Shown one piece after another: positions 45,050-45,480 of a stretch of 64,000 bases of DNA (position 1 is its first letter; each line of letters starts with the position of its first letter). The notes beneath the pieces are model-generated. The model saw only the letters and a program-made list of their open reading frames with translations, was not told where the DNA came from and did not search any database. Source of the DNA: Dictyostelium discoideum (taxonomy: Eukaryota); the NCBI GenBank assembly GCA_000004695.1, contig CM000151.3, positions 7,232,001-7,296,000 on the forward strand, read 5' to 3'. A program made the position numbers and the translations under genes.

Positions 45050-45480
45050 TTGTTGGAATTTCACTATTTGCTTGTTGTAATTTTTAAAGTAATAATATTT
45101 TTTTTTTCCCAAAATTATTATTTTTTAAAAGTTGAATATAAAAAAGAAGAAATTAAGAAATTTTAAAATCACTTTTTTTTGCCTTAAAAAAGCAATAAAG
45201 TCAAAAAAATCTTCTTGAAGCGTAATAGCTTTAATCAAGTGTAGTATCTGTTCTAGAACGCTTAAAATCGTTCTGCTATCTAAGTGATAGCTTTCGAATT
45301 TAATTTTATTTTTTATTCGAGGTTTTTAGATGTTATTATTATAATATCGGCTTGCCTTTATTCATTACATCTAAAGTTGTATTCCCTCTGTATCGCACCA
45401 TTTCAGAGTCAATAAAAGAGTACTACCTCTACCTATTTAATTTTAATGAAAAAAAAAAAAAAAAATTAGTTTGCATAGAA
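45050..45480. repeat. Non-AT-rich, non-coding block duplicated with the X/Y gene unit (copy 1).
   Basis: ..CTTGAAGCGTAATAGCTTTAATCAAGTGTAGTATCTGTTCTAGAACGCTTAAAATCGTTCTGCTATCTAAGTGATAGCTTTCGAA...TCGGCTTGCCTTTATTCATTACATCTAAAGTTGTATTCCCTCTGTATCGCACCATTTCAGAGTC.. It is about 97% identical to 49020-49450 and contains the 10-bp palindrome GTTCTAGAAC. Confidence 0.7.

Follow-up and report, generated by a model that had tools for sequence, protein, structure and literature searches.

A conserved, tandemly duplicated non-coding block of Dictyostelium discoideum carries putative U2 snRNA genes

Two near-identical blocks of ~430 bp were compared within the window, a 64-kb stretch of D. discoideum DNA in which positions are counted from the first letter. 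Each block very probably represents a complete, putatively active U2 snRNA gene that has been duplicated, and its excess of conservation over the adjacent coding DNA reflects purifying selection, gene conversion and the use of a near-neutral protein gene (X/Y) as the yardstick. In a preliminary description made from the letters of the sequence alone, the block had been proposed as a functional small RNA gene, a shared terminator or enhancer, or a piece of an uncharacterised repeat family. The first of these proposals is borne out by a full-length match of both copies to the U2 model of Rfam (RF00004). In the organization favoured here, the block consists of a far-upstream element, a DUSE and a TATA box, followed by a leader, a U2 body of ~215 nt and a 3' hairpin with its flank, and the U2 gene was copied along with the fast-evolving, Dictyostelium-specific X/Y protein gene upstream of it in a ~3.9-kb tandem duplication (Table 1).

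U2 family assignment and structure of the two copies

Both copies belong to the U2 family. When the whole window was scanned with Rfam, three matches reached the gathering threshold, namely two to U2 and one to tRNA-Ser. The U2 model (gathering score 46) was matched over positions 1-192 of 192 in each case, with 76.2 bits (E=3e-13) for copy 1 and 72.7 bits (E=2e-12) for copy 2. The two bodies are 97.7% identical (5 substitutions in 215 nt).

U2 is a spliceosomal RNA whose GUAGUA sequence pairs with the intron branch site and whose pairing with U6 forms the catalytic core. Here GUAGUA lies inside a 21-nt core, AUCAAGUGUAGUAUCUGUUCU, which occurs exactly at 45235-45255 and 49219-49239 and is invariant in all six copies that were compared (two from the window, two from D. 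discoideum strain FIW, one from D. cf. discoideum and one from D. citrinum). Stems I, IIa and IIb and stem-loops III and IV were all recovered by covariance-model alignment and by RNAfold, and folding of the U2 body, which the preliminary description had named as a check, gave -50.8 kcal/mol (z=-3.8). An Sm-like site, AUUUUUUA, is placed between stem IIb and stem-loop III in all copies; judged against the Sm-binding criterion RAU(4-6)GR, the next base is U/A and not G. The loop of stem-loop IV is UAUCGCACCAUUU, which resembles the U2B''-binding loop (U1A/U2B'' type, AUUGCAC-like). One of the five differences between the copies (nt 79, A>G in copy 2) still allows its stem IIb pair, now a G-U wobble; the remaining four (nt 132, 140, 165 and 177 of copy 2) fall in or beside stem-loop III and at the base of stem-loop IV. 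Covariation over the six sequences involved too little variation to lend support to the fold, almost all pairs being invariant, and the one pair with a change in each of its two bases falls in a poorly aligned part of the D. citrinum sequence.

The motifs that had drawn attention to the block are all present and correspond to structural elements of U2, a textbook RNA that the preliminary description had not identified. The palindrome GTTCTAGAAC is made up of the conserved single-stranded segment UCUGUUCU (ending in GUUCU) where it abuts the 5' strand of stem IIa (AGAACG), and CGTTCTG, one of the repeats listed together with (A/G)TAGCTTT and the TATCGCACC segment, supplies the 3' strand of stem IIa. 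In the same way, ATAGCTTT and GATAGCTTT supply that strand in stems I and IIb, and TATCGCACCATTTCAGAG is stem-loop IV (loop plus 3' strand). Of the AAGCGT...ACGCTT arms, the first is the 5' strand of stem I and the second that of stem IIa together with a portion of the stem IIa loop; no evidence was found for pairing of these two arms with each other.

The remaining compositional claims also held. The ORFs that overlap the block do not exceed 43 codons, and of these seven short ones, one starts with ATG (20 codons) and the others with TTG or GTG. The G+C content is 0.24 for the block as first delimited and 0.31 for the U2 body, compared with 0.08-0.14 in neighbouring intergenic DNA and 0.205 across the whole window, so the block is less A+T-rich than its surroundings. 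We infer that the pair is transcribed, capped and used in splicing.

Table 1. Positions in the window of the duplication units, the U2 genes and their putative accessory elements (nt, nucleotide of the U2 body; negative numbers, distance from the canonical U2 5' end)
Feature	Position	Strand	Basis or remark
Duplication unit 1 (X/Y gene copy 1, then U2 copy 1)	42077..45640	+	Self-BLAST, five-sequence MAFFT
Duplication unit 2 (X/Y gene copy 2, then U2 copy 2)	45733..49620	+	Self-BLAST, five-sequence MAFFT
Far-upstream conserved element, copy 1, TTTTATTGTTGRAATTTCA...TTGTAATT	45045..45089 (-164 to about -120)	+	Six-copy alignment
DUSE TCCCAAAA, copy 1	45107..45114 (-102)	+	Matches [AT]CCCA[AT]AA
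TATA box TATAAAAAA, copy 1	45137..45145 (about -72)	+	30 nt 3' of DUSE start
39-nt leader, copy 1	45170..45208	+	Begins 63 nt after DUSE start, ~32 nt after TATA box
U2 snRNA gene, copy 1	45209..45423	+	RF00004, RNAfold z=-3.8
Stem I, U2 copy 1	nt 7-26		
Branch-point recognition sequence GUAGUA, U2 copy 1	45241-45246		
Stem IIa, U2 copy 1	45255-45274		
Stem IIb, U2 copy 1	45275-45291		
Sm-like site AUUUUUUA, U2 copy 1	45308-45315 (nt 100-107)		
Stem-loop IV, U2 copy 1	45386-45408		
3' hairpin AGAG-UACUAC-CUCU plus CCUAUUUAAUUUUAAUG, copy 1	45417..45448 (nt 209 onward)	+	
Far-upstream conserved element, copy 2	49028..49072	+	
DUSE-like TCCCAAAT, copy 2	49091..49098 (-102)	+	7/8 positions
TATA box TATAAAAAA, copy 2	49120..49128 (start -73)	+	
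U2 snRNA gene, copy 2	49193..49407	+	RF00004 full length, 5 substitutions vs copy 1
3' hairpin and flank, copy 2	49401..49432	+	

Promoter elements, leader and 3' flank

A clean alignment of the six copies runs from about -165 to about +240, counted from the canonical U2 5' end, and all of them share one order of elements. The outermost, the far-upstream element, is kept in every copy including that of D. citrinum, while the ~20 nt that follow it diverge. Among the sequences compared it was found only beside U2 genes, and it is possibly a distal promoter element.

The DUSE (consensus [AT]CCCA[AT]AA) is a Dictyostelium ncRNA promoter motif (PMC3188802) that lies ~60-63 nt upstream of D. discoideum spliceosomal RNA genes. 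A DUSE about 60 bp upstream had been suggested as a check on the block; the element was indeed found upstream of both copies, but at -102. Its core, TCCCAAA, is invariant in the six copies and lies at -99 to -102. Over the window as a whole the consensus is not enriched (12 matches vs 21 expected). Further downstream, TATA(A/T)AAAAA occurs in all six copies at -70 to -73 (the D. citrinum version being TATTAAAAA), AAAATCAC at -43 to -45, and a second TATA-like sequence, TTAAAAAAG, at -25 (45184-45192 in copy 1).

The distance from the DUSE to the canonical U2 5' end is thus 99-102 nt in all copies vs the published ~60-63 nt, and a point 63 nt past the DUSE falls at about 45170 in copy 1 and 49154 in copy 2, inside the conserved AAAATCAC. 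The TATA box lies ~32 nt 5' of this point, as would be expected of a promoter with a DUSE and a TATA box, and a start ~39 nt 5' of the canonical U2 end is suggested. Judged from these spacings, the chances that transcription would begin near 45170 and 49154, and would yield a U2 RNA with a 5' extension of ~39 nt, are about even. The leader that would then be transcribed shows no difference among the four D. discoideum copies and is almost unchanged in D. citrinum, and it is as well conserved as the RNA body; it may belong to the transcript as a 5' extension, or it may be core promoter. In 2006, Hinas et al. reportedly described divergent U2 RNAs that bear an additional stem-loop at the 5' end, are enriched in the cytoplasm and are developmentally regulated, and the two loci may belong to these 5'-extended variants, which they resemble in the placing of the start by the DUSE and TATA box and in the conservation of the leader. 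The leader can also form an AU-rich hairpin of about 9 bp. Two observations weigh against such an assignment: this hairpin has no greater stability than those of shuffled sequences (z=-0.8 to -1.1), and the TATA-like TTAAAAAAG at -25 would suit a canonical start and speak against a 5' extension. Either start, 5'-extended or canonical, is within published knowledge.

On the 3' side, the hairpin AGAG-UACUAC-CUCU (45417-45430 and 49401-49414) is conserved in all six copies including D. citrinum. Together with the CCUAUUUAAUUUUAAUG that follows, it is a candidate 3'-end formation signal or 3' tail, and the hairpin and flank probably direct 3'-end formation.

The UACUAC loop of this hairpin is the exact complement of the GUAGUA of U2 itself, and the single variant of the loop (A>G in one FIW copy) would retain a wobble pair with GUAGUA. 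The minimum free energy fold given by RNAfold pairs the branch-point region with the 3' tail hairpin. A long-range duplex between the two was nevertheless set aside, since 13% of the 60-nt windows of this sequence, and 2.9% of shuffles, reach its -9.2 kcal/mol, and the complementarity may be a coincidence. A near-octamer 3' of copy 1 (GTTTGCAT, 45469-45476) was likewise rejected as an element, as neither D. citrinum nor FIW copy 2 conserves it.

Conservation of the block relative to the duplicated coding DNA

The ~3.9-kb tandem duplication was delimited by self-BLAST and global alignment. In the self-BLAST, 42077-43584 corresponds to 45733-47252, 43586-44969 to 47340-48697, and 44973-45619 to 48932-49608. 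In the global alignment, the near-identical block pair was placed at 45046-45480 and 49030-49458, which upholds the pair that had been reported and moves its second interval (given as 49020-49450) by about 10 nt. Of the columns in the alignment of the pair, 412 are matches, 15 mismatches and 10 gaps, corresponding to 96.5% identity over aligned bases or 94.3% over all columns, and the 100 nt 5' of the U2 body are 99% identical between the copies. For the two coding paralog segments, identity over aligned bases is 93.2% and 93.6% (89.7% and 90.9% with gaps counted; 92% in a five-sequence MAFFT alignment). The preliminary description was therefore right that the block is better conserved than the adjacent coding DNA: substitutions between copy 1 and copy 2 amount to 3.7% in the block vs 8.0% in coding sequence (Fisher p=0.001), and to 2.2% when the promoter plus U2 is set against the same 8.0% (p=4e-5). 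Immediately outside the block, identity between the copies drops to 65-85% and the flanking intergenic DNA is barely alignable; the block differs from the adjacent alignable intergenic DNA in copy-copy substitutions at p=1e-24.

In order to compare the block between species, syntenic regions anchored on the neighbouring PhoPQ-related gene were taken from other assemblies (L005-L010). Strain FIW (L005) shares the tandem arrangement and likewise carries two U2 genes, and one U2 gene each is present in D. cf. discoideum (L010) and D. citrinum (L008). These orthologous genes all match RF00004 over its full length with 76-78 bits, and promoter, body and 3' flank are kept in both D. cf. discoideum and D. 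citrinum. Neither the X/Y unit nor a U2 gene was found at the syntenic position in D. firmibasis, D. dimigraforme or D. purpureum. The presence of U2 only at the D. discoideum and D. citrinum syntenic loci indicates a young copy that is restricted to that clade.

Purifying selection and gene conversion had been offered as alternative causes of the excess conservation, and both were detected. Against D. citrinum the block is 84.5% identical and the X/Y gene 69-78%; against the single-copy D. cf. discoideum the figures are 96.5-97.8% for the block and 89-92% for coding sequence. Because the block is more conserved than X/Y in both comparisons, purifying selection is indicated. Gene conversion was examined in a sample of two strains with two paralogues each. 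At informative sites among these four D. discoideum copies, the promoter/U2 block has 5 concerted and 0 orthologous patterns, and the flanks have 22 concerted and 116 orthologous ones (block vs flanks, Fisher p=1.7e-4). As the flank sites mostly group orthologues, the duplication is older than the split of the strains. The block sites instead unite the two paralogues within a genome, which indicates conversion from one copy to the other. The excess conservation is accordingly attributed to detectable purifying selection on the RNA and its promoter and to detectable conversion between the copies.

The coding yardstick must be considered alongside these two processes. The two copies of the Y ORF differ at 46, 25 and 28 sites at codon positions 1, 2 and 3, with 66 amino-acid changes vs 14 synonymous-only codons; divergence at the first two codon positions is on a par with that at the third. 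The X/Y genes evolve roughly neutrally, and hence they form a weak yardstick for conservation.

Deviations from a standard U2 gene were weighed as possible signs of decay. All six copies have AAUC (45233-45236 and 49217-49220, plus strand) where the RF00004 consensus has the highly conserved GAUC. GAUC is the U2 strand of U2/U6 helix Ia and is almost universal in U2 RNAs. Stem-loop III has one pair-breaking change in copy 2 and one in a single FIW copy. These changes, together with the lineage-restricted locus and the non-standard distance of the DUSE from the canonical 5' end, would be in keeping with a view of the two copies as decaying or non-functional U2 pseudogenes that are alike only through recent duplication and gene conversion. 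The conservation, however, reaches the single-copy orthologues of D. cf. discoideum and D. citrinum, beyond anything that conversion between tandem copies could affect, and lies there well above the level of the neighbouring gene; it takes in the promoter elements and the 3' flank besides the RNA body, and the functional single-stranded regions are all invariant. The mismatch in the DUSE of copy 2, the AAUC and the stem-loop III changes leave the pseudogene reading a small probability, and we regard it as very unlikely.

The same AAUC enters a further reading, in which the pair would be a clade-restricted U2 variant that combines a start at -39, the leader, the G-to-A change in helix Ia and the self-complementary 3' loop with an inactive or non-splicing role. 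This reading is very unlikely. Its new part, a self-masking or non-splicing role of the pair, is weakly supported, the energy of the duplex being ordinary for this genome. An active, duplicated U2 gene is the reading preferred here.

The suggestion of an uncharacterised repeat family was not supported by the comparison. A fragment of an interspersed repeat or mobile element carried inside the duplicated unit would be favoured only by the duplication itself. The block has just two tandem copies within the 64-kb window and none in other X/Y-family loci (L001-L003) or in a 5-kb locus (L004); the copies in L005-L010 are orthologous U2 genes only, and the flanking motifs occur only at U2 genes among the sequences compared. 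Neither terminal repeats nor transposase ORFs were seen, and the full-length Rfam match accounts for the sequence, so that a repeat origin is extremely improbable. The loci L001-L003, taken around three D. discoideum-group homologues of the X/Y protein, were discarded for comparison of the block, being paralogous family members without U2.

A role as terminator or enhancer was equally hard to sustain. In favour of a cis-regulatory module serving the flanking X/Y or PhoPQ-related genes are the location of the block, past the 3' end of Y and ahead of the following gene, and its far-upstream conserved element. Nothing suggests such a role for the flanking genes, however: the most conserved part of the block is a complete structured RNA with the hallmarks of U2, and its position is not fixed, the D. 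citrinum U2 gene lying after X and Y fragments and upstream of a complete X/Y gene. A regulatory module is as remote a prospect as a repeat, and the block is again best read as a U2 gene.

Several observations concern the surroundings of the pair. In D. citrinum (L008, reverse-complement 3082-7784), the U2 gene follows a fragmentary X/Y remnant and precedes the complete X/Y copy, and no second U2 gene is present at this locus; the different arrangement implies that the unit was rearranged differently in that lineage. The X/Y genes (42077-44949 and 45733-48677, plus strand) belong to a Dictyostelium-specific multi-copy family, and their reading frames are broken into several ORFs in the window. 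Their proteins have no Pfam domain and, across most of the query, reach no more than 43% identity with annotated ones, and the copies may be pseudogenes or very fast-evolving genes. An exact-protein look-up of the AX4 homologue (P0002) and of one window ORF found no record. One D. discoideum assembly encodes a 391-aa ORF of the window without any difference, and the surrounding 5.2 kb are 99.8% identical there. A metagenome scan with the 27-mer GCTTTAATCAAGTGTAGTATCTGTTCT gave 0 matches.

Downstream of the pair, an exon at 49654-50532 (minus strand) is 100% identical to the AX4 PhoPQ-related protein XP_642859.1, and the window is accordingly taken as AX4-type DNA. Two PhoPQ-activated-pathogenicity-related (PF10142) paralogues (35609-37288, plus strand; 49651-51432, minus strand; ~69-75% DNA identity) flank in inverted orientation the ~12-kb region that holds the X/Y-U2 duplication, and the number and arrangement of such paralogues vary among dictyostelid species. 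An A+T-rich inverted repeat of ~78 nt (41772-41849, ~85% complementary, ACTTAAATATCATAATTGAATTTTT ... AAAAATTCAATTATGATATTTAAGT) lies ~230 nt upstream of unit 1. The tRNA-Ser(AGA) gene of the window (5204-5285, minus strand; Rfam 61.5 bits, also called by ARAGORN) is 87% identical to a tRNA at 10632-10713 of the D. purpureum locus (L006).

Relation to known snRNA genes and significance

The U1, U2, U4, U5 and U6 genes of D. discoideum have been experimentally identified and are preceded by the DUSE. The species has 17 snRNA genes, or 18 'rnu' genes in dictyBase, closely related ones often occur in close pairs, and its U2 isoforms fall into two groups with different developmental profiles. The loci described here resemble the U2 genes of this species and RF00004 in the full-length model match, the branch-point region, stems I, IIa and IIb, the Sm-like site and stem-loop IV, and they resemble its snRNA genes generally in the upstream DUSE and the close pairing; AAUC in place of GAUC at the helix Ia position and the spacing of the DUSE from the canonical 5' end set them apart. 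A tandemly duplicated U2 pair with a DUSE promoter is a kind of gene that has already been described, and this pair of full-length genes is very likely already annotated in the reference strain. A full-text search of the literature for strings of the U2 or leader sequence found nothing.

Plant-type Pol II snRNA promoters have an upstream sequence element near -70 and a TATA box near -30. The promoter proposed here is likewise bipartite, its TATA box following an upstream element at a constant distance, although the upstream element is the dictyostelid DUSE rather than the USE of plants or the PSE of animals. Animal snRNA arrays such as human RNU2 undergo concerted evolution, and the homogenization of paralogous copies by gene conversion is shared with them; unlike the RNU2 arrays, the present locus holds only two copies, within a duplication that carries a protein gene and not within a dedicated array.

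The pair is of little importance beyond correct annotation. An answer as to the start site could help to place both loci in the canonical or the variant class of U2, and a clade-restricted variant, if true, would be in line with the U2 variants of 2006, reportedly cytoplasmic and under developmental regulation. The case also illustrates that a reading of bare sequence can pick out a real structured-RNA gene from an excess of conservation. The locus also offers a small, clean example in which a duplicated snRNA gene is subject to both purifying selection and gene conversion and the protein gene duplicated with it drifts.
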